A stretch of 64,000 bases of DNA from Anaerolineales bacterium (GTDB lineage Bacteria; Chloroflexota; Anaerolineae; Anaerolineales; Villigracilaceae). Each line of letters opens with the position of its first letter. The first letter of the stretch is position 1. This document shows positions 4,496-47,983 of the stretch, one piece after another. The notes under the pieces are model-generated. The model was not told the origin of the DNA. It searched no databases and saw only the letters and a list, made by a program, of their open reading frames with translations. The stretch lies in contig DAOTVL010000005.1 in the NCBI GenBank assembly GCA_034436515.1, positions 18,500 through 82,499 of the forward strand. Reading direction: 5' to 3'. The position numbers were made by a program, and so were the translations under genes.

Positions 4496-5221
4496 ATGAA
4501 GGAACTCCTCTATTCCCGCAACGCCGTCTACGAAGCCCTCAGCGCAAAGCGCAGGCAAATCTTTTCGATTGAAATCGCCGAGGGGGCGCGGGAAAAAGGC
4601 AAACTGACCGAAATCCTCAAACTGGCGCAGGCGCGGAAAATTAAAGTCAGCCGCGTTCCACGCCCTAAACTCGACAGGATTTGCCAGAACCATCAGGGCG
4701 TTGTCGCCGAAGTCGGCGAATACCCTTACGCGGACTTGACCGACATTCTCGACAACGCCAAAGGCGAGCCGCCCTTCGTGTTGACGCTCGACTCGCTGCA
4801 AGACCCGCAGAACTTCGGGACGCTCCTCCGCACAGCGGAGGCGGTCGGCGCGCATGGCGTCGTCATTCCGCTGGCGCGCGCGGTGCAGGTGACGCCCGCC
4901 GTCGTCAACGCCTCGTCAGGAGCAAGCGAACACATGCTCATCGCGCAGGCGAATCTCTCGCAGACGATTGATGCGCTCAAGGCGGAGGGCGTATGGGTGG
5001 TCGGCTTGGACCAGGCTGGGGCGGAGATTCAACCTGGGTCGCGTCATCTCAAAGGCGCGCTGGCGCTCGTCGTCGGCTCCGAAGGCGAAGGTCTGCATGA
5101 ACTCACCCGCAAGAAATGCGACATCGTTTTGAAACTTCCCATGAAGGGAAAAGTCGAATCGTTGAACGCCGCCGTTGCGGGGTCGGTGGCTTTGTATCTT
5201 GCATATTTGAATCGCATGTAG
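4496..5221 (+). CDS. rlmB: 23S rRNA (guanosine-2'-O)-methyltransferase, SpoU/TrmH family
   Basis: Size fits and SpoU motifs are present: LDsLQDPQNFGTLLRTAEAvGahGV, LVVGSEGEGL, ESLNAAVAGSVALY. Confidence 0.8.
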   Translation: MKELLYSRNAVYEALSAKRRQIFSIEIAEGAREKGKLTEILKLAQARKIKVSRVPRPKLDRICQNHQGVVAEVGEYPYADLTDILDNAKGEPPFVLTLDSLQDPQNFGTLLRTAEAVGAHGVVIPLARAVQVTPAVVNASSGASEHMLIAQANLSQTIDALKAEGVWVVGLDQAGAEIQPGSRHLKGALALVVGSEGEGLHELTRKKCDIVLKLPMKGKVESLNAAVAGSVALYLAYLNRM

Positions 5222-5262
5222 GGCGAAGCAACGCTTCGCCTCTACAGTTAACGGAGAACATC

Positions 5263-6597
5263 ATGCCAAGCGCAACCTATCATTTTCCAAAGGGATTTTT
5301 GTGGGGGACGGCAACCGCCGCTCATCAAGTGGAAGGAAACAACGTCAACAACAATTGGTGGAAGTGGGAACAGGAAGGACACACGAACGGGTCTGCCGCT
5401 GTCGCCGCCGATTGGTGGGGCGGACGCTGGCGCGAGGACTTCGACCGCGCCGCCGAAACGGGGCAGAACGCCCACCGTCTCTCGGTCGAGTGGAGCCGCA
5501 TTCAGCCGACGCCCGACGCTTGGGACGAGGAAGCCATCGAAAAATATCGCGCCATGCTGCGGGGATTGAAAGAACGCGGCTTGACTCCGATGGTGACATT
5601 GCACCATTTCACCGACCCGCTCTGGCTGGCGGATATGGGAGGCTGGGAGACCGAAGCGGCGGTTCCCGTCTTCGAAAAGTTTGTCCGCAAGACGGTGGAT
5701 GCGCTGAAAGAATATTGCTCGCTGTGGTGTACGCTCAATGAGCCGACGGGCTACGCGCTGAACGGATACATTGCGGGCAACAAAGACTCCTTCCCGCCCG
5801 GAAAGAACGACCTGAAACTGGCAATGCAGGTGCAGGCGAATTTAATTCGCGGACACGCCGCAGCCTACCGCGCCATTCATTTGCTGCAACCCGAAGCGCG
5901 GGTGGGCTTCGCCCACCACTACCGTTCGATTGCCCCTCACCGCGCCTGGTCGCCGCTCGACAGGTGGGCGGCAAACAACTTCTTCAGCGGAATCAATCTC
6001 GGCTTTGCTTCCGCCCTGGCTGACGGCGTGATGAAGTCGCCCATCGGCTCGGTGCGGATTCCCGAAGCCAAAGGAACGCAGGATTATTTCGGTTTCAACT
6101 ACTATACGCGGGAATATGTGACCTTTGATTTGACCAAACCCGGCACGCTCTTCGGGCGCAACTTTTACCGCAAAGACGCCGAATTGAGCGATTACGGCTT
6201 CCTCGCCGTTGAACCCGACGGTATGTTTGAGGGGCTGAAGTGGGTTGCGCGGATGTTCCCCAACCTGCCGATTATCGTCACCGAAAACGGCGTCAACTCG
6301 GCGGACGATTCTCTCCGTCCGCGCTACACGGCGCTGCACATCCACCAAATGTGGCGCGCGGTCAACCTCAACTACCCGATTAAGGGTTACTTTCACTGGT
6401 CGCTGGTGGACAACTTCGAATGGGACCTGGGCTGGACTCACCGCTTCGGCTTGTGGGGACTCGACCTCGACACCCAAAAGCGCATCCGCCGTCCCAGCGT
6501 GGATTTCTACGCCGAGATTTGCAAAGAGAACGGTTTGTCGTCCGAGACGGTGCGGAAATATTGTCCGGAAGCGTTTGAACGGATTTTTCCGTCATAA
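5263..6597 (+). CDS. Glycoside hydrolase family 1 beta-glucosidase
   Basis: RBS acggag lies before ATG 5263. N-terminus is FPKGFLWGTATAAHQVEG. TLNEP (acid/base Glu) and ITENG (nucleophile Glu) are present. The upstream extension to 5116 is rejected because it overlaps rlmB. Confidence 0.9.
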   Translation: MPSATYHFPKGFLWGTATAAHQVEGNNVNNNWWKWEQEGHTNGSAAVAADWWGGRWREDFDRAAETGQNAHRLSVEWSRIQPTPDAWDEEAIEKYRAMLRGLKERGLTPMVTLHHFTDPLWLADMGGWETEAAVPVFEKFVRKTVDALKEYCSLWCTLNEPTGYALNGYIAGNKDSFPPGKNDLKLAMQVQANLIRGHAAAYRAIHLLQPEARVGFAHHYRSIAPHRAWSPLDRWAANNFFSGINLGFASALADGVMKSPIGSVRIPEAKGTQDYFGFNYYTREYVTFDLTKPGTLFGRNFYRKDAELSDYGFLAVEPDGMFEGLKWVARMFPNLPIIVTENGVNSADDSLRPRYTALHIHQMWRAVNLNYPIKGYFHWSLVDNFEWDLGWTHRFGLWGLDLDTQKRIRRPSVDFYAEICKENGLSSETVRKYCPEAFERIFPS

Positions 6598-6619: not shown

Positions 6620-8056
6620 CTATTGTTCATTAGGGACGTCGAACCGCTCGCTCAGGCTTGACGCGATGCTCTCCATTTGCGCCAGGATGGCGGGGACTTG
6701 CCCGCTGGGAACGTTGACGCGATACATGTGGGCGAAGCCGTCGCCGATGACGGTTTTTACCTGCCGCCAGGACGCCAGTTGAGGTTGAATCTCGCCCTGG
6801 GGCAGAAGTTCAATGGCTTGCTCCCATTGCGGGTGCGTTTTAGCGTAACTGCCAAGCAGTTTCATGCTGGAGGCGCGAATTGGGAAGAGATGAGTCGCCT
6901 CCGCCATCCGCGCGTCCTGTTCGTTTTCCAACATCCACCGCGCAAAGAGCCAAGCCGCCAATTTGTTCTGCGGCGTCGAAGCCAAAATCACATAGGATGA
7001 GCCGTACACCACAAGGGCGTCCTCGTTTTCTCCGGGGAAGGGCAGCGCCTTCCATACGTCCGTGTTTTGCGCTGCGGCAAAGGCGCGCGCGGCGGCGGGC
7101 AGGTCTTCAAGGCTGGCGGCGACGAACAACGCCCTGCGGTTTGCAAAGGCTTCGAGAGGGTCCGTTCCAGCCGCCTGCCAGGCGCAAAGAGATTCCGAGA
7201 GCTCGCGCAGAAAGCGCAGCGCCTTGATGTTGTTTGGGGTGAGGAAGCGATAGCCGCCGCCGTCCAGCGCTCCGCCCTCAAAGGCGAGCAGCCAGGCGTA
7301 AGCGGTCATGGGGTTGGCGTCCACATACCAGCCGCCCATAAAATCGTTCTGCGGCGCGTCGTCTTTCAACATGGCTTGCTGCGCGCGGCACGACTGCTGT
7401 TTGAAGTCGGCGGGCGTATCCGGTGGGGAAGCGAAGCCGATTTCTTCCGCCCAGGTTTGATTCCATAACAAAAGGCGCGCTGTGCGCTGGGCGGGAATTC
7501 CAAGCCGCCTGCCCCCGTAGTTATCCTGATTCAAGAAGACAACGGGGATGTCTTTCAGTTCCAGCCCGTACAGCGGGTCTTGCGCGTAAGGGTTTAAGTC
7601 CGTCACTACGCCGCTCTTGTCCCAGTCTAAAGCGTGCTCCGGCAGGGCAATCACCAGGTCGGGTCTATCGGCGGTGGGTAGAGCGGCGGCGGTGTTTTCA
7701 TATAGATTGGTGAAGTTGACTTGGCTTTCTACAACCACGCGCACGCCCCATTCGTTCTTTTCGTTGAATTCGGAGACCAGAGTCCCAAACCGGCTGGCTT
7801 CCACCCCGTACCACGGATGCCAGACCTTGACTTCGATTCCCTTCAACGACTCCGCTTCGACCCCAAGGTTGGAAACCGCTTTCTTGACGGGCGGCTCAGC
7901 GGTTCGGACGGACGCCGGCGTTTGCGGCGCAGATTCGGAACTGGGGGAGGGCGGCGCGGCGGGCGGCTCTGGCGTTATTTTTCCGCAAGCCGAAAGGAAG
8001 GCTGCGGCAAGAAAAAAGAGGAAAAAGATTTTTTTTATAGCGCGTTTCATGGTCAC
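6620..8056 (-). CDS. ABC transporter extracellular solute-binding protein (family 1, sugar type), lipoprotein
   Basis: Signal peptide with lipobox FLSACGK, followed by a Pro/Ser-rich linker. Length and overall pattern fit family-1 SBPs. Confidence 0.75.
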   Translation of the reverse strand: MTMKRAIKKIFFLFFLAAAFLSACGKITPEPPAAPPSPSSESAPQTPASVRTAEPPVKKAVSNLGVEAESLKGIEVKVWHPWYGVEASRFGTLVSEFNEKNEWGVRVVVESQVNFTNLYENTAAALPTADRPDLVIALPEHALDWDKSGVVTDLNPYAQDPLYGLELKDIPVVFLNQDNYGGRRLGIPAQRTARLLLWNQTWAEEIGFASPPDTPADFKQQSCRAQQAMLKDDAPQNDFMGGWYVDANPMTAYAWLLAFEGGALDGGGYRFLTPNNIKALRFLRELSESLCAWQAAGTDPLEAFANRRALFVAASLEDLPAAARAFAAAQNTDVWKALPFPGENEDALVVYGSSYVILASTPQNKLAAWLFARWMLENEQDARMAEATHLFPIRASSMKLLGSYAKTHPQWEQAIELLPQGEIQPQLASWRQVKTVIGDGFAHMYRVNVPSGQVPAILAQMESIASSLSERFDVPNEQ

Positions 8057-9448: not shown

Positions 9449-12058
9449 TTGGAGATTTTTCGGCGCTTTGCGGCAAGGTATAATTGCGCGAATTCCATCT
9501 TTGATTCTTACAGGCGATTTTATCCGTTGACAAATTTGACGTTTCGTTTTGAATCTTCGCGCCGCTTGTCGAAAGCGGCGGCAAAAAGTCTTTTGGGGGC
9601 GTTTCTTGCGTTTTTTTTTCTTCCCCTCTCCCGCGCCGCCGCCCACCCTGCGGACGTGTACGCCCACACGATTTATGTCAAGTTTTCCAGCGACCGCCTG
9701 AATATCGAATGGGAAATCAAACCCGGCGCGATGCTGACTTCGTACATCTGGTACGAAGCCGATTCGAATCAGGATGGGATTCTCAGCCAGCGGGAGATGG
9801 ACGACTGGGGACGCGACCGCGCCGCGCTGTTGACCGCTTCGCTCGACGACAAGCCTTTGCCCCTGCGGATAGACTCGGCGCGAATGCCTTCAGACTTGAA
9901 CAAGTTTCAGGCGGGCGAGGAGTTTATCAGGTTTACGCTTTCGGGGGATTTGCCAGCGGGCGAGGGACACCTTGTCCTGCGGAACATGTTCCAGACCAAG
10001 ACCTCGGTCAACTGGTTTTATCTTTCGGCGGCGGAAGGGGCGGGATTTTTATCTCCGAACCAGCAAAATCATTTCATCGAATTTGATTTCTTCACCGACC
10101 GCGACCTTGCTCCCGAACCCGACAAGCTGTTGACCGCCTGGGACAGCGGAGCGCCGTCGCTGCCAGCGGGACAGCAAAAGGACGTGGTGACTCAAACCGC
10201 CGAGCAAGTTGTCCCTGAGTTATCGCAGCGCGCGCCGCAGGAGATTCTGCTCGACCTCATGCGGACGGAAAACCTCTCGCTTTCGTTCTATGCCTTTGCG
10301 CTGGTCGTCTCGCTGGCGTTGGGCGCTTTGCACGCGCTGACCCCCGGTCACGGAAAAACCATCGTTGCGGCGTATCTTGTCGGCTCGAAAGGCGCGGCGC
10401 GGCACGCGATTGCCCTCGGCGGCATCGTCACGCTGACGCACACAGGCTCGGTCTTCGCGCTTGGGATTCTGACCCTGACCGCCTCGCGTTACTTTTTCAG
10501 CGGAAGCCTTTTGCCATACTTGGAGTTGCTTTCGGGCGCGTTGATTATCCTTCTTGGCGGAGGGTTGCTGCTTCCAAGATTGCAAGCGTGGCGCAAAAGC
10601 CGTTTGCCGATTCAAAATCCGCAGGAAATTAAAATCGAAGGCGGAAGAAAGCGGCTGGTTATTGACCAAGCCATTGCCGAAGACGCGCCGAGTCACAAAC
10701 ATGACGGCGCGCTTCCGCGCAAGCCGACGGTGGGGAATCCGCTGGCAGAATTGACCTGGCGCTCGCTCATCACCCTCGGCGTCAGCGGCGGACTTGTTCC
10801 CTGCCCCGACGCGATTGCCATTCTGCTGGTCGCCGTCGCCATCAATCGGATTCCGCTTGGGCTGGCGTTGATTGTCTCGTTCAGTCTGGGGCTGGCGGCT
10901 GTGTTGATTGTCATCGGCTGGCTGATGGTCAGCGGCGGAAGGCTCTTCGCGCGGATGAACTTCCTTAGCCGAGTCGCGCCGCTCATGCCTGTGGTCAGCG
11001 CGGGCGTGGTGATGATTTTGGGAGTCGTCCTGACTTATGGGGCGGCAGTCAAGGTTCAGGCTGGGAACAGCCCGCAGAAAACAGAATCCACTTTGAGCGG
11101 GGCAAGGGTTTTCTATCTCGCGGAAGATGAAAACAAGTACAAGCAAATCTTCGCGGCGGAGACCAGTCTCGGCGGTCCGCAAAAAATCACGAACGCCGAA
11201 AAAGGCGTGACCGACTTCGCCGTCTCGCCCGACGAGTCGCAAATCGTTTTCATCGAGCAGACCGAAGATTTGGATTACGCCCTGTGGCTGACCAGCGCGG
11301 ACGGGGCGAACCAGCGCAGGATGTTTATCTGCGACGACGCGAATTGCAGCCAGCCTGTGTGGTCGCCCGACGGGCTGCAAATCATCTTCGAGTACATGCC
11401 GCTCGACGCGGGAACTTCGTCGTTGTGGTGGCTCGACGCGACGACGGGCGCGGCGCAGCCGGTCTTTCAGGAGTCGCGGCTGCCGGGGACGAACCCGCGC
11501 TGGTCGCCGAACGGCGAGTGGCTGAGTTACGCTTCGACGGATGGAATCCATTTGACTAATTTGATGACGGGCGAAAGCCGCGTGATTCCCAACATGCTCG
11601 GCGCGGCGGCGCAGTGGTCGCCCGACGGCAAGACAATTTTGCTGCGCGACGTGATTATCAAAAACGGAATGTTCGTCACGCAGTTGTTTTTGTACGACCT
11701 CGAAACTGATTCGCCGACCAACCTTATCCCAGACGAGGGGTTTGAAAATATCCTCGCGGCGTGGTCGCCCGACGGGAAGCAGATTGCCGTCGTGCGGCGT
11801 GACCTGTCGATTCCGCGCGGCGACCAAATCTGGCTCATGAACGCCGACGGCTCGAACGCCCGCGCCATCACATCCGCGCCCGCCGTTCTTCATGGAAGTT
11901 TGAACTGGTCGCCCGATGGGAAATTCATTTTGTACGATTTGTATTTGCTGGATTCCTTCCCAATGGAATCTCAACTGGAGGCGGTAAACGTTACGACGGG
12001 GGAGACGACGAATTTGGGTGTCCTCGGCTACAACCCGAAGTGGGTGTGGACGGAATAA
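9449..12058 (+). CDS. Fusion protein: secreted EF-hand-containing N-domain + NicO/RcnA-type nickel/cobalt-family permease + C-terminal PD40 (TolB-like) beta-propeller
   Basis: Signal peptide is SLLGAFLAFFFLPLSRAAA. A canonical EF-hand loop DSNQDGILSQRE lies at nt 9761-9796. NicO-type motifs are HALTPGHGKT and GVSGGLVPCPDAI. Six (W/V)SPDG/SPNG/SPDE blades are present. The true start is probably a downstream in-frame TTG (9527, 9536 or 9566), because a TATAAT lies at 9479-9484 inside the maximal ORF. Confidence 0.8.
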   Translation: MEIFRRFAARYNCANSIFDSYRRFYPLTNLTFRFESSRRLSKAAAKSLLGAFLAFFFLPLSRAAAHPADVYAHTIYVKFSSDRLNIEWEIKPGAMLTSYIWYEADSNQDGILSQREMDDWGRDRAALLTASLDDKPLPLRIDSARMPSDLNKFQAGEEFIRFTLSGDLPAGEGHLVLRNMFQTKTSVNWFYLSAAEGAGFLSPNQQNHFIEFDFFTDRDLAPEPDKLLTAWDSGAPSLPAGQQKDVVTQTAEQVVPELSQRAPQEILLDLMRTENLSLSFYAFALVVSLALGALHALTPGHGKTIVAAYLVGSKGAARHAIALGGIVTLTHTGSVFALGILTLTASRYFFSGSLLPYLELLSGALIILLGGGLLLPRLQAWRKSRLPIQNPQEIKIEGGRKRLVIDQAIAEDAPSHKHDGALPRKPTVGNPLAELTWRSLITLGVSGGLVPCPDAIAILLVAVAINRIPLGLALIVSFSLGLAAVLIVIGWLMVSGGRLFARMNFLSRVAPLMPVVSAGVVMILGVVLTYGAAVKVQAGNSPQKTESTLSGARVFYLAEDENKYKQIFAAETSLGGPQKITNAEKGVTDFAVSPDESQIVFIEQTEDLDYALWLTSADGANQRRMFICDDANCSQPVWSPDGLQIIFEYMPLDAGTSSLWWLDATTGAAQPVFQESRLPGTNPRWSPNGEWLSYASTDGIHLTNLMTGESRVIPNMLGAAAQWSPDGKTILLRDVIIKNGMFVTQLFLYDLETDSPTNLIPDEGFENILAAWSPDGKQIAVVRRDLSIPRGDQIWLMNADGSNARAITSAPAVLHGSLNWSPDGKFILYDLYLLDSFPMESQLEAVNVTTGETTNLGVLGYNPKWVWTE

Positions 12059-12163: not shown

Positions 12164-12192
12164 TTGACTTCCAGCGTTTTGTCTTTTATACT
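12164..12192 (+). promoter_or_regulatory. Sigma-70-type promoter of the zur-znu operon
   Basis: TTGACT (12164-12169), 17 nt, TATACT (12187-12192). Confidence 0.6.
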
Positions 12193-12219: not shown

Positions 12220-12645
12220 GTGACGATGTCCGCTGAAACCTGGCTCAACCAGTTGCACGAGAACGGCTATCGCGTTACCAAGGCGCGCGGCGCGGTGGTG
12301 GAAACGGTGGTTCAATCCACCCGCGCCCTGACCCCCGTTGAGGTGTACGATTTGGCGCGGAAGAAATATCGCGCTTTGGGGCTGGTCACCGTGTACCGCA
12401 CGCTCGAAAAGCTGGAAGAATTGCGTCTCGTCCAACGCGTGCATCAGGCGGCGGGTTGTCAGGCGTTCATCTCGGCTTGTCAGGGACATCAGCATTTGCT
12501 GCTCTGCCAAAACTGCGGGCAGATTGTCTTCTTTGAGGGCGACGACATCGAACCGCTCATCAGGACCGTCGCCAAGAAGACGGGCTATGAAATCAAGGAA
12601 CACTGGCTGCAATTGTTTGGTCTGTGCGAGAATTGCCGCGCATAA
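12220..12645 (+). CDS. zur: Fur-family transcriptional regulator, probable zinc uptake regulator
   Basis: About 140 aa with a winged-helix N-domain. Cys pairs CQNCG...CENC are present. It lies directly upstream of the znuACB-like genes. GTG 12220 or ATG 12226 could be the start. Confidence 0.75.
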   Translation: MTMSAETWLNQLHENGYRVTKARGAVVETVVQSTRALTPVEVYDLARKKYRALGLVTVYRTLEKLEELRLVQRVHQAAGCQAFISACQGHQHLLLCQNCGQIVFFEGDDIEPLIRTVAKKTGYEIKEHWLQLFGLCENCRA

Positions 12646-12740: not shown

Positions 12741-13682
12741 ATGAAAAAGATTTTCAATTCCATTACTGTATTTGCAATTGCGGCGATTTTCCTCGCCGCT
12801 TGCGGGTCTGCCCCATTGAAGAGCGACGGCGCTTTGAACGTCCTCGCTTCCACCACCTTCCTTGCGGACATTGCCCAAAACGTGGCGGGCGACCGCGCCA
12901 AAGTTGAGTCCCTGCTGCCCATCGGCGCAGACCCGCATTCATATCAAGCCGCGCCATCGGATGTGGCGAAGATTTCAGAAAGCAACCTGCTGATTCTCAA
13001 CGGCGTGGAGTACGAACACTTCATCGAGACGCTGCTTGAGAACGCGGGCGGCAAGCGGGTGATTGTCGAGGCGGCGACGGGGCTTACCCCGCATCGCATG
13101 GAAGAACACGATGGCGAGGAACATGCCGAAGGCGAGGAAGGTCACGACCACGAAGCGGGCGACCCGCACATGTGGCTTGACCCAAATCTAGTCGTCACCT
13201 ATGTGGAGAATATCCGCGATGGATTCATCCAAGCCGACCCCGATGGCGCGGAAACCTACAAAGCCAACGCCGAGGCCTACATCGCCCAACTCAAAGACCT
13301 GGATAAATGGATTGTCGAGCAGGTGAACGCCGTCCCTGCGGAACGCCGTCTGCTGGTGACCAATCACGAGGCGATGGGTTATTTCGCCGAACGCTACGGT
13401 TTCGAGGTGGCTGGGGCTGTCATCCCAAGTTTCAGCAGCAATGCCTCGCCGTCCGCGCAGGAAATGGCGGCGTTGGCGGATGAAATCAAAAAGCTTGGCG
13501 CGCCCGCCATCTTTCTCGACACAGCGGATAATGACGTTCTTGCCAGGCAAATCGCCGACGAAACAGGTGTTATGATTGTCTCAGACCTGCATTTGGAATC
13601 CCTGACCGACGGCGCGCCCGCGCCGACTTACATCGACATGATGAAAGATAACGTTTCAAAGATTGTGGAAGCCCTCAAATAA
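12741..13682 (+). CDS. znuA: Metal (Zn/Mn family) ABC transporter substrate-binding lipoprotein
   Basis: RBS is taggag. Lipobox is LAACGS. TroA/ZnuA-like fold motifs are present. An acidic His-rich loop HRMEEHDGEEHAEGEEGHDHEAGDPH is typical of zinc-specific ZnuA proteins. Confidence 0.8.
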   Translation: MKKIFNSITVFAIAAIFLAACGSAPLKSDGALNVLASTTFLADIAQNVAGDRAKVESLLPIGADPHSYQAAPSDVAKISESNLLILNGVEYEHFIETLLENAGGKRVIVEAATGLTPHRMEEHDGEEHAEGEEGHDHEAGDPHMWLDPNLVVTYVENIRDGFIQADPDGAETYKANAEAYIAQLKDLDKWIVEQVNAVPAERRLLVTNHEAMGYFAERYGFEVAGAVIPSFSSNASPSAQEMAALADEIKKLGAPAIFLDTADNDVLARQIADETGVMIVSDLHLESLTDGAPAPTYIDMMKDNVSKIVEALK

Positions 13683-14501
13683 ATGTATCCTCACGTCAAT
13701 CACCAAACCGACAAACCCATTCTCGCTGTGCGCGACGTGTCCGTTCGTTATAACGGGCGCGTCGCGCTTGATAACGTCGCCTTTCACCTGCATGTCGGAG
13801 AGCGCGTTGCGGTGGTGGGACCGAACGGAGCAGGGAAAAGCACTCTCTTCAAAGTCGTTTCTGGCGTGCTGCAACCCAACAGCGGAGAGGTGACCATTTC
13901 TGGTTCAAAACCCACATCCCACAGCTGCATTGCCTACATCCCCCAGCGCAGTCAGGTGGATTGGAAGTTCCCTGTCAGCGTGGCGGATGTGGTGATGATG
14001 GGGCGTTCCGCCAAGCTGGGACCATTTAATTTCCCCAAAAAGCGGGATTGGGATTTCGTCAATCGCGCGCTCGAAACCGTCCAGATTGGAGACCTCTCCA
14101 GGCGGCAAATCGGTCAATTGTCGGGAGGGCAGCAGCAGCGGATGTTTATCGCGCGCGCGTTGGCGCAGGAAGCGGAACTCATGTTGATGGATGAGCCGCT
14201 CACGGGTCTCGACACGCCCGCCCAGGAAGGCTTGCTCAATTTGCTGGACACCTTGCGCGAGCAGAAAGTCACCGTGATGGTGGCGACTCACGACCTAGAA
14301 CAAGCCGCGCGGCATTTTGACCGTCTCATGTTGTTGAATAAAAAGATTGTGGCGTTTGGCAATGCGGAAACTGTGTTGCGCGCTGATAACTTATTGTCCG
14401 CCTACGGCGGACGTTTCCGTGCGGTTGAAGGAAAAGGCAACCTATTGACCGTTGACGACTCATGCTGCGACGAGGGAGAACACGACCATGTTCACAATTG
14501 A
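13683..14501 (+). CDS. znuC: Metal ABC transporter ATP-binding protein
   Basis: Walker A GPNGAGKST, signature LSGGQQQR, Walker B LMLMDEP. The ATG immediately follows the znuA stop. Confidence 0.85.
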   Translation: MYPHVNHQTDKPILAVRDVSVRYNGRVALDNVAFHLHVGERVAVVGPNGAGKSTLFKVVSGVLQPNSGEVTISGSKPTSHSCIAYIPQRSQVDWKFPVSVADVVMMGRSAKLGPFNFPKKRDWDFVNRALETVQIGDLSRRQIGQLSGGQQQRMFIARALAQEAELMLMDEPLTGLDTPAQEGLLNLLDTLREQKVTVMVATHDLEQAARHFDRLMLLNKKIVAFGNAETVLRADNLLSAYGGRFRAVEGKGNLLTVDDSCCDEGEHDHVHN

Positions 14502-14521
14502 CGATTTGCGATTTACGATTG
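14502..14521. repeat. 5' inverted arm of the four-helix-bundle cassette
   Basis: CGATTTG-CGATTTA-CGATTG heptamer units. 18/20 complementary to 14892-14911. Confidence 0.7.
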
Positions 14522-14539
14522 ACGTTTAAGGAGAGCGGC

Positions 14540-14914
14540 ATGGACGAAAAAACTTTCAAGGCTCGCACGAAAAAATTGGCTGTCGCCATCATCAAGCAAG
14601 TTGAAAAAATGCCCCGCTCTCTGGCGGCGGATGTGATTGGGAAGCAGGTAATTCGTTCGGGCGCTTCCATTGGTGCAAACTATCGTGCCGCGTGCCGCGC
14701 AAAATCCACGCCCGACATGATCAACAAAATGAAAATCGTCGAAGAAGAAAGCGACGAAACCCAATACTGGCTTGAACTTTTAGTCGAAGCAGGACTCGCT
14801 CCCAAAGACCAAGTTGCCAGCATCTACAAGGAAACGGATGAAATCCTCGCCATGACCGTCGCTTCCATAAAAACTCTTCGCAATCGCAAGCCAATCGTAA
14901 ATCCAAAATCGTAA
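14540..14914 (+). CDS. Four-helix-bundle protein (23S rRNA intervening-sequence protein / Avd-like family)
   Basis: RBS is aaggagag. Family-typical motifs are RSGASIGANYRAACRAKS and EESDETQYWLELL. The gene is visibly more AT-rich than the flanking znu genes. Confidence 0.85.
   Translation: MDEKTFKARTKKLAVAIIKQVEKMPRSLAADVIGKQVIRSGASIGANYRAACRAKSTPDMINKMKIVEEESDETQYWLELLVEAGLAPKDQVASIYKETDEILAMTVASIKTLRNRKPIVNPKS
14892..14911. repeat. 3' inverted arm of the four-helix-bundle cassette
   Basis: caatcgtaaatccaaaatcg. The reverse complement of the 5' arm is caatcgtaaatcgcaaatcg. Further AATCG(T/C)AAA units extend to 14929. Confidence 0.7.
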
Positions 14915-14948
14915 ATCTGAAATCGCAAACCCAAGATTTGGAAGTCAA

Positions 14949-15776
14949 ATGCTTTTTCTTTTAGAACCTCTCAAATATGAGTTCATGCAGCGCGGCATGA
15001 TTGCCGCCGTGTTGGTCGGAATCGTCTGCGCCGTGGTCGGGACTTATGTTGTCTTGCGCGGCATGGCGTTCTTTGGCGACGCGCTTGCCCATACCATTTT
15101 GCCTGGAATTGCCATCGGTTACCTCGTCTCAGGCGACGCGCGGGATACGTTGTTCTGGTGGGCACTGGGGACAGCCGTCGTTGCGGCGTGGGGCATCGGC
15201 GCAATCAGCAAGCAGGCGGAGATAAAAGAAGATACGGCAATCGGCGTTATCTTCGCGGGGATGTTCGCGCTTGGCATTGCGCTGATTTCCACCGTCCGCA
15301 GTTACGCCGTGGATTTGAGCCATTTTCTCTTCGGCGACGTGCTGGGCGTGTCGGCGCAAAGTTTGTGGATTATCTTCGTCTTTTCGGCGATTGTCCTGTT
15401 GACGATTGCCGCTTTTTACAAGGAATTCATGACTCTTTCGTTTGACCCTGTCCTTGCGGCGACTCTTCGTCTGCCCATCAACCTGCTCAATAACCTTTTG
15501 CTGGGACTCATCGCCGTGACGGTCGCCGTCTCGCTGCAAACCGTCGGCGTGGCGTTGATGGTCGCGATGCTGGTCACGCCCGCCGCGACGGCTTACCTGC
15601 TCACGAATCGTTTGTGGATTATGATGGCGCTTGCCGTGGTTCTGGCTTCACTGGCGGGCGTCGTCGGCTTGTATCTTTCGTATTACCTGAGCGTTGCCTC
15701 GGGCGCGGCGATAGTGCTAACGGCTACCGCGTTTTTCCTTTTGGCGTTCTTGTGGAAGCGGATGAAATCTTTATAA
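14949..15776 (+). CDS. znuB: Metal ABC transporter permease
   Basis: ABC-3 family pattern (FMQRGMIAAVLVGIVCAVVGTYVVLRGMAFFGDALAH), about 8 TM helices. Confidence 0.85.
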   Translation: MLFLLEPLKYEFMQRGMIAAVLVGIVCAVVGTYVVLRGMAFFGDALAHTILPGIAIGYLVSGDARDTLFWWALGTAVVAAWGIGAISKQAEIKEDTAIGVIFAGMFALGIALISTVRSYAVDLSHFLFGDVLGVSAQSLWIIFVFSAIVLLTIAAFYKEFMTLSFDPVLAATLRLPINLLNNLLLGLIAVTVAVSLQTVGVALMVAMLVTPAATAYLLTNRLWIMMALAVVLASLAGVVGLYLSYYLSVASGAAIVLTATAFFLLAFLWKRMKSL

Positions 15777-15896: not shown

Positions 15897-17372
15897 ATGC
15901 GAAATAAAACCATCCATGCCCTTCTTTTGTTGACATTCATTCTGTCAGCATGTTCATCCCTTGCTCCCGCGCCGACGGCGACTCCGACCGCTTCGTTAAT
16001 TCCAACCGCAACTATCACGCCGCCGCCGACCAGCGCCCCGCCGCCAACCGCAACCCCCGCGCCCGCCCTCGAACGCGCCAAGTACACGCTCGACACAACT
16101 ATTGACTATGACGCGCATACGGTCGCGGTCAGCGAAAAGATTCTGTATCCCAACCTGACAGGCAAACAACTCAACACGCTGGCGCTTGCCGTTGTCCCCA
16201 ACCTGTGGAGCGGAAGTTTCGCCATGACAGGGCTGGCGCTCAACGGCGCGCCCATTACGACCTATACCCTTAACGGTCAGCGGCTGGACATTGCCCTGCC
16301 TGACTTCTTCAAACCCAACGAGGTCATGACGATTGACGTTCAATTTAATCTTATCCTGCCCTTTGCCGAGCAGGAAGACCCCAGCGTCTCGCGTCCGCGC
16401 ATTTATGGCTACACCAAACGCCAGTTGAACTTGACCAACTGGTATCCCTTTGTCGTGCCGCACGTCAACGGAGAATGGGTTTTGCACGAACCGTGGTATT
16501 ACGGCGAACATCTGGTTTACGACGCCGCCGACTACGAAGTGAACGTCAAATTTACCGACCCCGCCGCCGCGCCCGTTGTCGCCGCCAGCGGAGCGCCCGA
16601 ACAGCAGGACGGCTTTACCCGTTATGTCGTCAACTCCGCGCGGACTTTCGCTCTCTCCGCCAGCCGCGAGTTTCAGGTTTCCAGCGTGCAGGTGGGGGAT
16701 GTGACCGTCTCCAGCTATTATTTCCCCTTCTTTGAGTGGGGCGGACAGGCAGCGCTTCAAGCCAGCGCCGAAGCCTTAAGCGTATACAGCACCCGCTATG
16801 GAGCGTATCCGCATAAAACGCTTTCGCTGGTAATGGGCGACTTCAACGACGGCATGGAGTACTCCGCATTTTTCTACCTCAGCCGCGATTTTTACAGTCT
16901 CTACGACGGCACGCCCGCCAATTACCTGACTTTTGTCGCCGTGCATGAAACTTCGCATCAGTGGTGGTTTGAGCAGGTCGCCAACGACCAGGCGCAGCAG
17001 CCCTGGCTGGATGAAGCCCTTGCGACCTACTCCGAGCGGGTCTATTACGAGAATGTCCATCCCGACCTTATCAACTGGTGGTGGTCGTACCGCATTGACT
17101 TTTACAACCCGCAGGGCTTTGTAGACATCCCCATCTACGATGGACAGGGTTTCCGCCCTTACACCAACGCCGCCTATTTTCAGGGAGCGCACTTCCTCGA
17201 CGAACTCCGCGCCCGCATCGGCGACGAAGCCTTCTTCGCTTTCATTCAAGACTATCTGGCGCAGGGGCGCGGCAAAATTGTCGGCGCCAGCGACTTCTTC
17301 CGTATTCTCGCCGCGCATACCAGCGCAGACTATTCCGACATCGTCCGCCAATATTTCCGAAACGTCTATTAA
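15897..17372 (+). CDS. M1-family (gluzincin aminopeptidase N-like) zinc metallopeptidase lipoprotein
   Basis: Lipobox is LSACSS, followed by a Pro/Thr linker. HETSH-x18-E (WLDEALATY) is the HExxH-18-E zinc site. Confidence 0.75.
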   Translation: MRNKTIHALLLLTFILSACSSLAPAPTATPTASLIPTATITPPPTSAPPPTATPAPALERAKYTLDTTIDYDAHTVAVSEKILYPNLTGKQLNTLALAVVPNLWSGSFAMTGLALNGAPITTYTLNGQRLDIALPDFFKPNEVMTIDVQFNLILPFAEQEDPSVSRPRIYGYTKRQLNLTNWYPFVVPHVNGEWVLHEPWYYGEHLVYDAADYEVNVKFTDPAAAPVVAASGAPEQQDGFTRYVVNSARTFALSASREFQVSSVQVGDVTVSSYYFPFFEWGGQAALQASAEALSVYSTRYGAYPHKTLSLVMGDFNDGMEYSAFFYLSRDFYSLYDGTPANYLTFVAVHETSHQWWFEQVANDQAQQPWLDEALATYSERVYYENVHPDLINWWWSYRIDFYNPQGFVDIPIYDGQGFRPYTNAAYFQGAHFLDELRARIGDEAFFAFIQDYLAQGRGKIVGASDFFRILAAHTSADYSDIVRQYFRNVY

Positions 17373-19000
17373 TGAGAACCTCCCATACCGTCGGCAAGCC
17401 TCGGTTGCGCCTTAGGCGTTACGCGCTGCCTCTCGCCCTTCTCGCCTTCCTCGCTTCCTGCGCTTCCCCCGCTCCCGCCGCGCCCGTCTTCCCGACCTTC
17501 ATTCTGGTCACGCAAGACCCTCATGCGACTTCGACCTCGACCCCTTTCCAGCCTTCCGGCAAGGCAGTTTCGCTCCCGCCGACTTTTACGGCTTCCGCGA
17601 CTCCATCCCTCACGCCGACTGTGACCGCCAGCGCGACGCCGCTTCCTACGCTGACGGCGACTCTCTCCCCCGTCCCGCCCCCGCCGACGGTTGGCTCTAT
17701 TCCGACAGCCGTTCCCCAGCCCGTAACTCCCTCGCGCGCCAATTACATCCTCACCGCTACGCTTGATTTTGACGCGCATATCCTTGACGTGGACGAGACT
17801 ATCCGCTATTACAACACGACGGGAGTCGCGCTCTCCGATATTGTTCTCTCCGTCCAGCCTAACCGCTACGACGGGGCGTTTTCGCTGTTGGCGGTTTTTC
17901 AAGATAACGCCGCGCTCACGACTTACTCGCTCAGCGACCAGCGTTTGACGTTGAATCTACCGCAGCCGCTTCAGCCTAACGCCGCCACTACCCTGGGGAT
18001 TAAGTTCAAGTTGAACCTTCCCCCAAAAACCGACGAAAGACTCTTTGGCTACGACTTCAACCAGATTGACCTGGTGGACTGGTATCCCTTTGTCGTTCCC
18101 TATGACGGCGGCTGGATTTTGCGCGACCCCATGCCCTTTGGCGAACACCTTGTTTACGACTCTGCGGACATCGAGCTGAACCTCAAAACCAGCCCGGACG
18201 TGATAGTCGCCGCCGGCGCGCCCGCCGAATCGAACGGCGAATGGACCCGCTATCGGCTCTACGGCGCGCGCGCCTTCGCGCTTTCGGCAAGCGACGAGTT
18301 TTTGATGTCCGAATCCGCTGTCGGACCAGTCAAGATACGCTCTTATTATTTCGACGGTTACAAAGCCGCCGGCGAGGGAATCCTCTATGCGGCGGCTCAG
18401 GCGGTCAGTCTTTTTTCCGCCAAATTTGCTCCCTATCCCTATGAAACCTTATCCATTGTCCAGACCGACATTCACGACGGCATGGAGGCTGACGGCTTGG
18501 TGTTCGTCGCCTCGGATTTTTACGGACAATACGGCGGCGGCGCCAAAAATAACCTCGTTTCGATTGGCGTGCATGAAATCTCCCATCAATGGTGGTATGG
18601 GCTGGTGGGCAACGACCAGGCGCTTGAACCCTGGCTCGACGAGATGATGGCGACTTACAGCGAGCGGATTTTCTACGAATTCAATTATCCGCGCTACGGC
18701 GATTGGTGGTGGCAGTTTCGCGTGGATTATTTCAAACCGACGGGGTATGTGGATACGCCCATCTATAGCGGCGGCTCGTTTCGCTCCTATGTCAATGCGG
18801 TGTACTTGCGCGGCGCGCGCTTTATGGAAGATTTGCGCGTCCGCATGGGCGACGAGAATTTCTACGCCTTCCTCAAGGACTACGCCGCCCGTTATTCCCG
18901 CCAGCGCGTCACCACCGCCGATTTTTTCGCCGCTGTCCGCGCCCACACCAACGCCGACCTCAGCGACTTGACGATGAAATATTTTTCAATCTCGTACTGA
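17372..19000 (+). CDS. M1-family zinc metallopeptidase-like lipoprotein (tandem paralog)
   Basis: The start overlaps the previous stop (TAATG). Lipobox is LASCAS with a long Pro/Thr/Ser linker. HEISH-x18-E (WLDEMMATY). Colinear similarity to the upstream gene (NWYPFVVP / DWYPFVVP, GEHLVYD). Confidence 0.75.
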   Translation: MRTSHTVGKPRLRLRRYALPLALLAFLASCASPAPAAPVFPTFILVTQDPHATSTSTPFQPSGKAVSLPPTFTASATPSLTPTVTASATPLPTLTATLSPVPPPPTVGSIPTAVPQPVTPSRANYILTATLDFDAHILDVDETIRYYNTTGVALSDIVLSVQPNRYDGAFSLLAVFQDNAALTTYSLSDQRLTLNLPQPLQPNAATTLGIKFKLNLPPKTDERLFGYDFNQIDLVDWYPFVVPYDGGWILRDPMPFGEHLVYDSADIELNLKTSPDVIVAAGAPAESNGEWTRYRLYGARAFALSASDEFLMSESAVGPVKIRSYYFDGYKAAGEGILYAAAQAVSLFSAKFAPYPYETLSIVQTDIHDGMEADGLVFVASDFYGQYGGGAKNNLVSIGVHEISHQWWYGLVGNDQALEPWLDEMMATYSERIFYEFNYPRYGDWWWQFRVDYFKPTGYVDTPIYSGGSFRSYVNAVYLRGARFMEDLRVRMGDENFYAFLKDYAARYSRQRVTTADFFAAVRAHTNADLSDLTMKYFSISY

Positions 19001-47299: not shown

Positions 47300-47983
47300 A
47301 TGAAATTCATTGTTATTGGGTGCGGACGAGTCGGCGCTCAACTTGCCTACCGCCTTTACCGACAAAAATACAAGGTCGTTGTGGTGGACAGCAACCGAAA
47401 CTCTTTCAACCGCCTGCCGGCCGACTTTCATGGGCGCACTGTGGAAGGCGAAGCGCTTGCCGCCGACACCTTTACCCGCGCCGGGGTTGCGACGGCGGAA
47501 GGAGTGGCTGTGGTGACCAATTCCGACACCATGAACGCGGTTATTGGCCACGCCATCCGCTCTCATTACCCTGAGGTCAAACGCGTTCTTGTCCGCAATT
47601 ACGACCCCGCCATGCGCGAGATGCTTGAAGCCTTTGGGCTTCAGGTTGTCAGCTCCACCGCTTGGGGGGCGGAGCGCCTGCAAGAACTTCTGATAGACGC
47701 TTCTTTTCGCGCCGTTTTCTCCGCCGGCAACGGCGAAGTGGAAGTTTATGAAATGCACGTTCCCAGCGCTTGGAGCGGAGCCCCGCTTTCCTCTTTGCTC
47801 GAAAACTGCTCCAACACCATCGTCGTCGCGGCGTTGACCCGCGCTGGGCGCGCCCAACTTCCCGCGCTTGATACGAAACTTGAAGGCGGCGATATTCTCA
47901 CCGTGAGCGCAACCCTGGAAGGCGTCACCGCTCTGAACGCCCGCCTGAACGCCCGCCTGAACGCCCGAAAGGAGGCTGCTTAA
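47300..47983 (+). CDS. TrkA-family (RCK) potassium transport regulatory protein
   Basis: Rossmann motif is IVIGCGRVGAQLA, followed by a C-terminal TrkA-C domain. Confidence 0.8.
   Translation: MKFIVIGCGRVGAQLAYRLYRQKYKVVVVDSNRNSFNRLPADFHGRTVEGEALAADTFTRAGVATAEGVAVVTNSDTMNAVIGHAIRSHYPEVKRVLVRNYDPAMREMLEAFGLQVVSSTAWGAERLQELLIDASFRAVFSAGNGEVEVYEMHVPSAWSGAPLSSLLENCSNTIVVAALTRAGRAQLPALDTKLEGGDILTVSATLEGVTALNARLNARLNARKEAA

Follow-up and report, generated by a model that had tools for sequence, protein, structure and literature searches.

Genes for a "four helix bundle protein" are annotated by the thousands inside unrelated operons and, in cas loci, are read as components of the pathway. To our knowledge, the open reading frame (ORF) family of ribosomal RNA (rRNA) intervening sequences (IVS) has been given neither a function nor a life history since 1993. 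Here we analyse a gene of this kind in a 64,000-nucleotide stretch of an Anaerolineales bacterium (contig DAOTVL010000005.1 of assembly GCA_034436515.1, positions 18,500 to 82,499), where a PF05635 ORF framed by inverted arrays of seven-base repeats lies between the ATPase and permease genes of a metal-uptake operon. We refer to the ORF together with its repeat arms as the cassette, and to the whole 64-kb stretch as the window.

The closest described systems are the IVS of Leptospira, Coxiella, Brucella and Xanthomonas ("S23p"), in which a PF05635 ORF sits inside stem-forming terminal inverted repeats and belongs to the host transcript without a promoter of its own. The IVS in the 23S rRNA of Coxiella has a 28-bp terminal stem that is cut by RNase III in vitro, and two to three tandem heptamers GACAGAT, variable in copy number between strains, precede its PF05635 ORF, with the 5' cut falling at the first repeat (PMC4990558). 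PF05635 genes have also been seen in 16S and 23S insertions of candidate phyla radiation (CPR) bacteria. The cassette shares this layout, and Coxiella even has the variable tandem heptamers on the 5' side, but it differs from rRNA IVS in three respects. Its host is a polycistronic mRNA between protein genes and not an rRNA helix; strong purifying selection acts on its ORF, which has a good Shine-Dalgarno (SD) motif, whereas the Coxiella ORF has been reported as decaying and poorly translated; and its 3' arm overlaps the ORF stop and abuts the start of the next gene. A second comparison is offered by Avd of diversity-generating retroelements (DGRs), which binds an RNA stem-loop in ribonucleoproteins (RNPs) where distal RNA segments pair (10.1101/2023.10.23.563531). 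Avd has the same four-helix-bundle fold, and the RNA stem-loop that it binds adjoins its own gene, with upstream and downstream segments pairing. Unlike a DGR, however, the cassette has no reverse transcriptase or template/variable repeat nearby, and the sequence identity of the two proteins is low.

The arms also have counterparts among known repeats. Among the periodic repeats that SPADE detected between genes in 7006 genomes, tandem heptamers were the most abundant, with "no clear clue" to their function (10.1101/309039). These repeats and the STRR-type repeats of cyanobacteria are, like the arms, head-to-tail arrays of period 7 between genes, and the arm-only remnants of the cassette are themselves plain intergenic heptamer arrays. 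They differ in having been described without a link to any gene (10.1101/309039), and not all of them flank PF05635 genes, an array pair around a TetR gene (locus L063) being a case in point. Repetitive extragenic palindromic (REP) sequences and bacterial interspersed mosaic elements (BIMEs) with a RAYT gene, as well as miniature inverted-repeat transposable elements (MITEs), likewise bracket a short gene or sequence with inverted repeats, lie between genes in operons and persist as ORF-less derivatives. Unlike these, the cassette carries no transposase or nuclease, its arms are tandem arrays of variable copy number and not a fixed palindrome, it occurs once per genome within its subfamily, and it has no consistent target-site duplication. 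Finally, PF05635 genes lying between cas genes, e.g. cmr3 and cmr2, were read as functionally linked to them (PMC3936711). They share with the cassette the position between two co-transcribed partner genes, and one related locus found here (L090) lies between csx2 and cas1; given the breadth of host operons, the position of a PF05635 gene probably reflects the cassette and not the pathway of its host. The literature searched, in which most subscription journals are missing, contained no account of PF05635 cassettes with heptamer arms in mRNA operons, so that an earlier description is possible. The cassette is best filed as the architecture of ORF-containing rRNA IVS living in mRNA operons.

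A four-helix-bundle gene between inverted heptamer arms

The ATPase gene ends at 14501 and the permease gene starts at 14949, with 447 nt between them. The junction carries the following features:

14497-14528, forward strand: 5' arm, tandem heptamers ATTGACG, ATTTGCG, ATTTACG and ATTGACG with the core GATT (Tandem Repeats Finder, period 7, 4.7 copies)
14528-14533, forward strand: SD motif AAGGAG of the four-helix-bundle ORF, read from the sequence
14540-14914, forward strand: gene for the 124-aa four-helix-bundle protein, PF05635/TIGR02436 (family profiles, PDB 2RLD, AlphaFold2 model, Foldseek)
14893-14934, forward strand: 3' arm, AATCGTAAATCCAA-type array, the reverse complement of GATTNNN units (Tandem Repeats Finder, period 14, 3 copies)
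14935-14948, forward strand: linker from the 3' array to the znuB start, read from the sequence, without a canonical SD motif

A first-pass annotation, made from the letters of the window, had placed a 124-aa four-helix-bundle ORF with an Avd-like fold in this gap, and both points are borne out, along with the other details that it gave of the sequence; the phenomenon proved more extensive than it had suggested. The ORF matches PF05635 with 67 bits (cut-off 33.8) and TIGR02436 with 90.1 bits (cut-off 24), and phmmer relates the protein to PDB 2RLD at E 5.7e-19. The AlphaFold2 monomer model (predicted local distance difference test, pLDDT, 92) consists of helices at residues 3-23, 28-52, 57-83 and 89-114, followed by a disordered tail (residues 115-124, pLDDT ~48) that is encoded by the 3' array. 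Foldseek ranked 2RLD first for this model (TM-score 0.79-0.90), then the Xcc0516 pentamer 2GSC (0.75-0.86) and next Avd of the Bordetella-phage DGR (8UB7 and 4DWL, 0.76-0.87), to which sequence identity is 11-13%. An R-x3-S-x3-N-x2-E motif is reported as conserved in Xcc0516 homologues and cas-linked members (PMC3936711); its first three residues are present here as R39, S43 and N47, invariant or nearly so in 30 relatives, while the last position is A50 instead of E. The protein contains no His- or Cys-rich motif and matched none of the PADLOC defence-system profiles at E up to 0.01, and no Rfam family matched within 14300-15100. No reverse transcriptase or template/variable repeats were found near the cassette, the sole repeats in 14400-15050 being the heptamer arrays. 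Both the PF05635 ORF and the heptamer pattern occur once in the window, and the cassette is indeed richer in AT than its surroundings (GC 0.474 for 14502-14948 vs 0.564 for the window).

The arms enclose the ORF together with its ribosome-binding site, as had been annotated. A repeat search at the locus returned inverted pairs I1-I4 and a repeat family, D2. Complementarity amounts to 88% over 25 nt between 14497-14521 and 14892-14916, and a second pairing, between 14502-14520 and 14907-14925, reaches 89% over 19 nt. ATTGACG stands at 14497-14503 and again at 14518-14524, the duplication noted at first pass; the TGA stop of znuC falls within the first of these heptamers, and the stop codon of the ORF (14912-14914) sits within the 3' arm. 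The arms close the structure in both the minimum free energy (MFE) and the centroid RNA fold of 14490-14950, which agrees with the stem that had been predicted around the ORF.

Such arms recur around the relatives of the gene. Lag-7 periodicity has a median of 20-21 of 28 positions in both flanks, whereas controls average 10.8 and have their 95th percentile at 15. When the inverted arms of 77 related loci are aligned, the median score is 37; local controls average 15, with a median of 25 for their maximum. The arms score above all ~96 local controls in 56 of these loci, and when scored in direct orientation they give only 14. Of 83 loci with two periodic arrays, 63 have a 5' consensus unit that differs by at most one mismatch from the reverse-complemented 3' unit, a match that random 7-mers attain in 0.9% of trials. 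The expectation that other family members would carry inverted arms built from heptamers is thus supported, as is the description of the locus as an rRNA-IVS-type package, i.e. a PF05635 ORF enclosed by such arms.

The sequence of the unit changes with the distance of the protein. At a protein identity of at least 75%, the unit is GATTNAC with an invariant GATT core in all 43 loci, and an array lies upstream of the ORF in each of them. At 55-75% identity the unit is GATTNNN in 29 of 32 loci, which include Nostoc, Fischerella, Microcoleus, a deltaproteobacterium and metagenome-assembled genomes (MAGs) of Binatia and Terriglobia, and at 30-55% other units replace GATT in 8 of 8. Cyanobacterial relatives of the cassette are flanked by GATTTTR and YAAAATC arrays. 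By these counts the heptamer unit follows the protein clade. Distant members on plasmids carry the following units, which differ from GATTNNN but again match one another across the two arms:

Nostoc punctiforme: 5' unit GTCGGAR, 3' unit YTCCGAC
Nostoc flagelliforme and Dolichospermum: 5' unit AATTCGT, 3' unit ACGAATT
Nostoc flagelliforme: 5' unit AATTCAA, 3' unit TTGAATT
Nostoc C057: 5' unit GATTGCA, 3' unit TGCAATC
Chlorohelix: 5' unit GATGAAG, 3' unit ATTCATC
Euhalothece: 5' unit CAGTKAC-type, 3' unit CACTGGT
Monoglobus (Bacillota): 5' unit AATTAGG-type, 3' unit CCTAATT-type

A role of the arrays as suppliers of stop codons in three frames was considered and discarded, because it is true for the TAA- or TAG-containing units here, fails for ACGAATT and GTCGGAG, and yields no general rule. 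Two further observations concern arrays of this type in other settings. In L063, ACTGTTT and CAGTAAA heptamers stand in inverted pairs round a TetR gene and a Nif11-like ORF (224-273 and 1569-1606; 7793-7834 and 7938-7976), so inverted heptamer arrays in cyanobacteria are not exclusive to PF05635 cargo. In L072, a CCCAATC/CCAAATC-type heptamer array at 4953-4990 lies within a CbiQ-like ORF (4554-5549) and encodes NPPIPNPKSQISNQ; here a protein appears to have taken up an array of the arm type.

Host operons, age and loss of the cassette

The cassette is housed in an operon with these genes:

12220-12645, forward strand: Fur-family regulator gene, first of the metal-uptake cluster (PF01475, E 2e-24)
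12741-13682, forward strand: ZnuA/AztC-like substrate-binding protein gene (PF01297, E 3.7e-86; AztC-like, under the equivalog cut-off)
13683-14501, forward strand: ABC ATPase gene, znuC-like (PF00005)
14949-15776, forward strand: ABC-3 permease gene, znuB-like (PF00950, E 5.4e-77)

Judged by its profile matches, the transporter is a cluster-9 Zn/Mn system, AztABC/MntABC-like; as it stays under the equivalog cut-offs, "znu" is an approximate label. The genes for ZnuA and the ATPase abut with a gap of 0 nt, and the znuA-znuC junction is therefore empty in the window genome. More than 8000 relatives of the four-helix-bundle protein exist in the protein database, and the best 120 of them are 79-96% identical and all from Chloroflexota/Anaerolineales. 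A scan of one genome per species yielded 80 loci, about 45 of which, all Anaerolineales or Chloroflexota, have the cassette inside the same operon, mostly at the ATPase-permease junction and in five species at the ZnuA-ATPase junction. Heptamer arrays flank the gene in every arrangement among these operon-resident loci, and there is one locus per species genome for this subfamily. In several Anaerolineales (L013, L018 and L058), the znuA-znuC junction holds a different palindromic element, "ttcgtcattgcgag...ctcgcaatgacg", which is ~90-100 nt long, resembles a REP or MITE and has no relation to the heptamer arms.

Members of the same subfamily (57-67% identity) with the same type of arms lie outside znu operons, namely between genes for TldD and PmbA, a GAF-MCP and CheA, Der and CbiQ, two ABC half-transporters, and an Opp permease and its ATPase. 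More distant members separate HsdS from HsdR, a helicase from a methylase, DUF1156 from Swt1-HEPN, csx2 from cas1, an RND adaptor from its pump, and KAS III from an M20 hydrolase. Both neighbours are co-directional with the gene in 28 of 29 non-znu loci in genomes, several of which are orthologous contexts, and in 11 of 14 plasmid loci. On these comparisons the cassette is a discrete package that recurs between the partner genes of many operons in several phyla. The first-pass suggestion that such elements are discrete units able to settle in protein-coding operons is upheld by the unrelated operons in other phyla and, as described below, by empty sites, arm-only hairpins and a second occupied junction.

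This breadth bears on the view that the protein is a dedicated accessory of zinc or manganese uptake and that the repeats are incidental. Such a role might account for a position in the operon that is conserved across an order, and for purifying selection that is stronger on the protein than on ZnuB or ZnuC. However, the same subfamily with the same arm type sits in the unrelated operons named above, and distant members lie in restriction-modification, CRISPR-cas and RND efflux operons (PMC3936711 for cas). Moreover, of the 73 informative loci found by scanning metagenomes with ZnuB, 28 have the cassette and 45 lack it but keep the operon. As the protein also lacks His- or Cys-rich motifs, we regard a dedicated part in metal uptake as very improbable.

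The age of the cassette can be gauged from silent sites. Compared with the window at four-fold degenerate sites of identical codons, the ORF has an identity of 0.40-0.43, ZnuB one of 0.40-0.46 and ZnuC one of 0.36-0.40. Within the window's clade, the silent-site values are 0.64-0.73 for the cassette vs 0.54-0.71 for the flanks, and across the order all are equally saturated. Since the values of the ORF and its flanks are alike, the cassette has diverged together with the flanking genes. In the divergent operon type, amino-acid identity is 80% for the ORF, 64% for ZnuB and 48% for ZnuC, which speaks for strong purifying selection on the protein, and the arms survive the same divergence and must thus be selected or actively maintained. 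At the level of sequence comparison, both the arms and the protein are shown to be under selection, and the cassette in Anaerolineales is shown to be an old, vertically inherited resident.

Junctions without the cassette are common as well. In a combined set of loci, znuC and znuB overlap in 21 ("gaccATGttcatTAActgg"), with a ZnuB that starts MxxxINWLL, so that the proposed comparison with relatives did uncover empty sites. Among them is L095 (ZnuC 93% and ZnuB 94% identical to the window), which has a clean overlapping junction, is as near to the window as the cassette-bearing L001 and L007, and branches, by neighbour joining, among the window, L001, L006 and L007. The window ZnuB begins MLFLLEPL, the cassette-type form. 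Directly left of the cassette, the window znuC contains an ATG at 14488-14490 ("gaccATGttca"), which we consider a relic of the overlapping znuB start on comparison with the empty junction of L095, L119, L121 and others.

Between full and empty junctions there are numerous intermediates. Both arms and the final codons of the ORF remain in L094, while scars remain in L152, L170 and L108. A full cassette occupies the znuA-znuC junction of L015, whose znuC-znuB junction holds an internally deleted cassette with intact arms. In L029 and L038 the full cassette is at znuC-znuB and a mini-hairpin of arm, loop and arm at znuA-znuC, where several further loci keep remnants of the 3' array. A separate observation is that the interior of the cassette in L116 (1823-3000) has been swapped for a lipoprotein/PD40-like gene of ~1.1 kb, while both arrays and the last 45 nt of the ORF stay intact; by its layout, this is a cargo replacement inside the arms. 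L105 resembles L116, with a gap of 1152 nt.

In the ZnuC+ZnuB tree (neighbour-joining, without bootstrap) these states are interspersed, and full cassettes occur in every major clade of both operon types and on both deep branches. The copies at znuA-znuC group in the protein tree with znuC-znuB copies of sister species, which fits two ancestral cassettes followed by differential loss. The tree of 116 aa of the four-helix bundle is poorly resolved and does not separate co-divergence from transfer between the two operon types. L033 is 0.82-0.95 identical to the window across 14463-14880, i.e. the cassette and 40 nt of znuC, and 0.5-0.75 identical outside, which indicates a recombinational exchange of the cassette and the His-rich ZnuC tail between distant lineages. 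Taken across loci, the comparison shows a cassette that was repeatedly lost by deletion, once duplicated to the znuA-znuC junction and occasionally exchanged by recombination. Loss dominates; the second junction and the many unrelated host operons imply that gain occurs too, and no gain event was caught.

The first-pass annotation had implied an insertion into a normally compact operon, and in its strongest form this would be a recent arrival of a mobile element that split the znuC-znuB junction in the lineage of the window. The clean junction of the closely related L095, the relic start still left of the window cassette, the restriction of high identity in L033 to the cassette and 40 nt of znuC, and the use of a second junction in other species could all be read in this way. 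The silent sites of the cassette, however, have diverged as much as those of the flanks, no major clade of either operon type is without a cassette, and the common decay intermediates point to loss over gain. Comparison of filled with empty junctions, the check proposed at first pass, revealed no consistent target-site duplication, and a candidate based on TCAAATGA-like resemblances at both boundaries in L007 and the window was rejected as inconsistent across loci. No transposase was found, PF05635 being the only ORF of the cassette, and neither was a multi-copy family, the window having a single copy and each species genome a single locus of the subfamily. A recent insertion is therefore quite unlikely, and the implied insertion gives way to an old, inherited element.

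RNA stem or recognition arrays

With co-directional neighbours and few promoter-like sites, the cassette depends on host transcription. A sigma-70-like site lies upstream of the ORF in 15% of znu-type loci vs 5% of controls; a promoter of its own in the 5' array was considered and rejected on these frequencies and on the weakness of the site in the window (TTCACA-17-TACGAT). The cassette's translation signals are distributed unevenly: across 58 cassette-bearing loci, an SD-like motif precedes the ORF in 52 and znuB in none, and the ORF stop is separated from the znuB ATG by a median of 26.5 nt. As empty sites use gene overlap, the cassette appears to replace the coupling of znuC to znuB by a coupling of the ORF to znuB.

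The reading we favour, with moderate confidence, is that of an IVS-type cassette whose arms form a stem in the operon mRNA for processing and/or protein binding, and whose ORF is coupled to znuB. Without a promoter of its own, the cassette would be transcribed within the operon mRNA, and its arms would pair there into a register-tolerant stem of 20-30 bp round the ORF. The stem might be a site of processing, a target of the Avd-like pentamer that the cassette itself would encode, or both, a role suggested by the geometry, which is that of ORF-containing 23S rRNA IVS with stems cut by RNase III. The ORF would be translated from its own SD motif, and znuB, which has neither an overlapping start nor an SD motif, might be translated by termination-reinitiation from the ORF stop in the 3' arm. 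The cassette would thereby be wired into the coupling chain between two partner genes. In MFE folds of 97 cassettes, a median of 36 base pairs joins the two flanks vs 7 with the 3' flank reversed. Duplex folding of 120-nt flanks did not discriminate, with random controls reaching -44 kcal/mol, and local alignment and whole-cassette folds were used instead.

A number of observations weigh against a stem in the mRNA. About 20% of the 97 cassettes have weak arm pairing, the antisense strand folds equally well in this set, and the folding z-score of the whole window cassette (14490-14950) is weak at -1.39. No excess of wobble pairs was found in the arms, where 38 G·U pairs compare with 42 A·C pairs, 168 other mismatches and 1758 Watson-Crick pairs; together with the equal folding of the antisense strand, this means that the sequence alone does not favour an RNA stem over a symmetry at the DNA level. 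When the units of one arm are put in random order, complementarity falls from 0.85 to only 0.79, with 3 of 59 loci at ≤5% in a comparison of low power, which leaves little sign of pairing in a specific register beyond what unit composition gives. The GATT core, kept across phyla at saturated silent-site divergence, looks more like the target of sequence-specific recognition than like part of a helix that is free to drift. Members from Bacteroidota and the gut have other repeat layouts: the Bernardetia locus (L087) has direct 14-mers in place of inverted heptamer arrays, and two gut contigs (L180 and L181, the only contigs returned by a phage search) have dispersed GTGATAT/ATATCAC and TGAAAT/ATTTCA motifs upstream and no inverted heptamer arrays. 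The rule of inverted arms is therefore not universal in PF05635. Finally, RNase III cleavage and reinitiation would both be extrapolations for this cassette.

Many of these points would be expected if the arms work as DNA, or as arrays recognised by their sequence, with the pentamer or a host factor binding the inverted GATTNNN units on either side of the gene in the service of autoregulation, protection or recombination. Such a mode of action would agree with the lack of wobble bias on either strand, the similar folds of sense and antisense, the little register-specific pairing revealed by the unit shuffle, and a unit that tracks the protein clade, from 43/43 loci with a GATT core to its replacement in 8/8; the dispersed inverted motifs upstream of gut and Bacteroidota members might likewise be operator-like. 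On the other hand, the precedent within the family is RNA, both in the RNase III-cut stems of IVS and in the binding of RNA by Avd in DGR RNPs. Strict co-orientation and the lack of a promoter are expected of an element that works at the RNA level and are not required of a DNA-binding array, and in L059 and L071 perfect arms of 33 nt are mirrored down to their irregular units. We therefore treat recognition arrays as a possible, if unlikely, explanation. The comparison of units shows that complementarity is maintained at the unit level, which would fit a stem in RNA, a structure in DNA or a pair of recognition arrays.

The stem in operon mRNA can be extended to a wider proposal, in which PF05635 cassettes with inverted heptamer arms are a widespread and hitherto unrecognised RNA-level element. 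An RNA defined by the arms would be released by RNase III from operon or rRNA transcripts, bound by the Avd-like pentamer of the cassette and copied into new junctions of partner genes by a reverse transcriptase acting in trans, and decayed copies (arm-only hairpins and scars) would explain a sizeable share of the intergenic heptamers of prokaryotes. We offer this as speculation that is unlikely as a whole.

Surroundings of the operon and meaning for the family

The neighbours of the cassette in the window are the Fur-family regulator, ZnuA, the ABC ATPase, the ABC-3 permease and M1 peptidases. A promoter-like TTGACT-17-TATACT lies at 12164-12192, upstream of the Fur-family gene. Directly upstream of that gene, an 869-aa ORF (9449-12058) encodes a fusion of a NicO-like nickel/cobalt transporter domain with a TolB/PD40-type beta-propeller, and this fusion is also kept beside the operon in relatives (L002). 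Downstream of the operon stand tandem M1-peptidase paralogues with Pro/Thr/Ala-rich, lipoprotein-like N-termini (15897-17372 and 17372-19000), a pair that is kept in the same place in relatives (L001, L002 and L004). Elsewhere in the window, a 12-nt tandem repeat (CCGCCTGAACGC) at 47928-47967, with 3.2 copies and 96% matches, is the top-scoring tandem repeat of the stretch.

These data join three things, the ORF family of rRNA IVS, the four-helix-bundle genes lodged in operons and the heptamer repeats between genes. The gene travels with matched inverted arms, lodges co-directionally between partner genes, is long kept by selection and leaves heptamer hairpins on decay. Such a package of gene and arms may help to explain the abundance of 7-base repeats between bacterial genes, and the znu operon of Anaerolineales offers a natural series of its states, from the full cassette through the deleted ORF, the arm-only hairpin and the scar to the clean junction. 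If the arms are sites of RNase III cleavage or protein binding, many operons of Chloroflexota and Cyanobacteriota would be processed or translationally coupled via cassettes, which would affect the stoichiometry of their subunits, and annotation of the PF05635 family through guilt by association would have to be distrusted.

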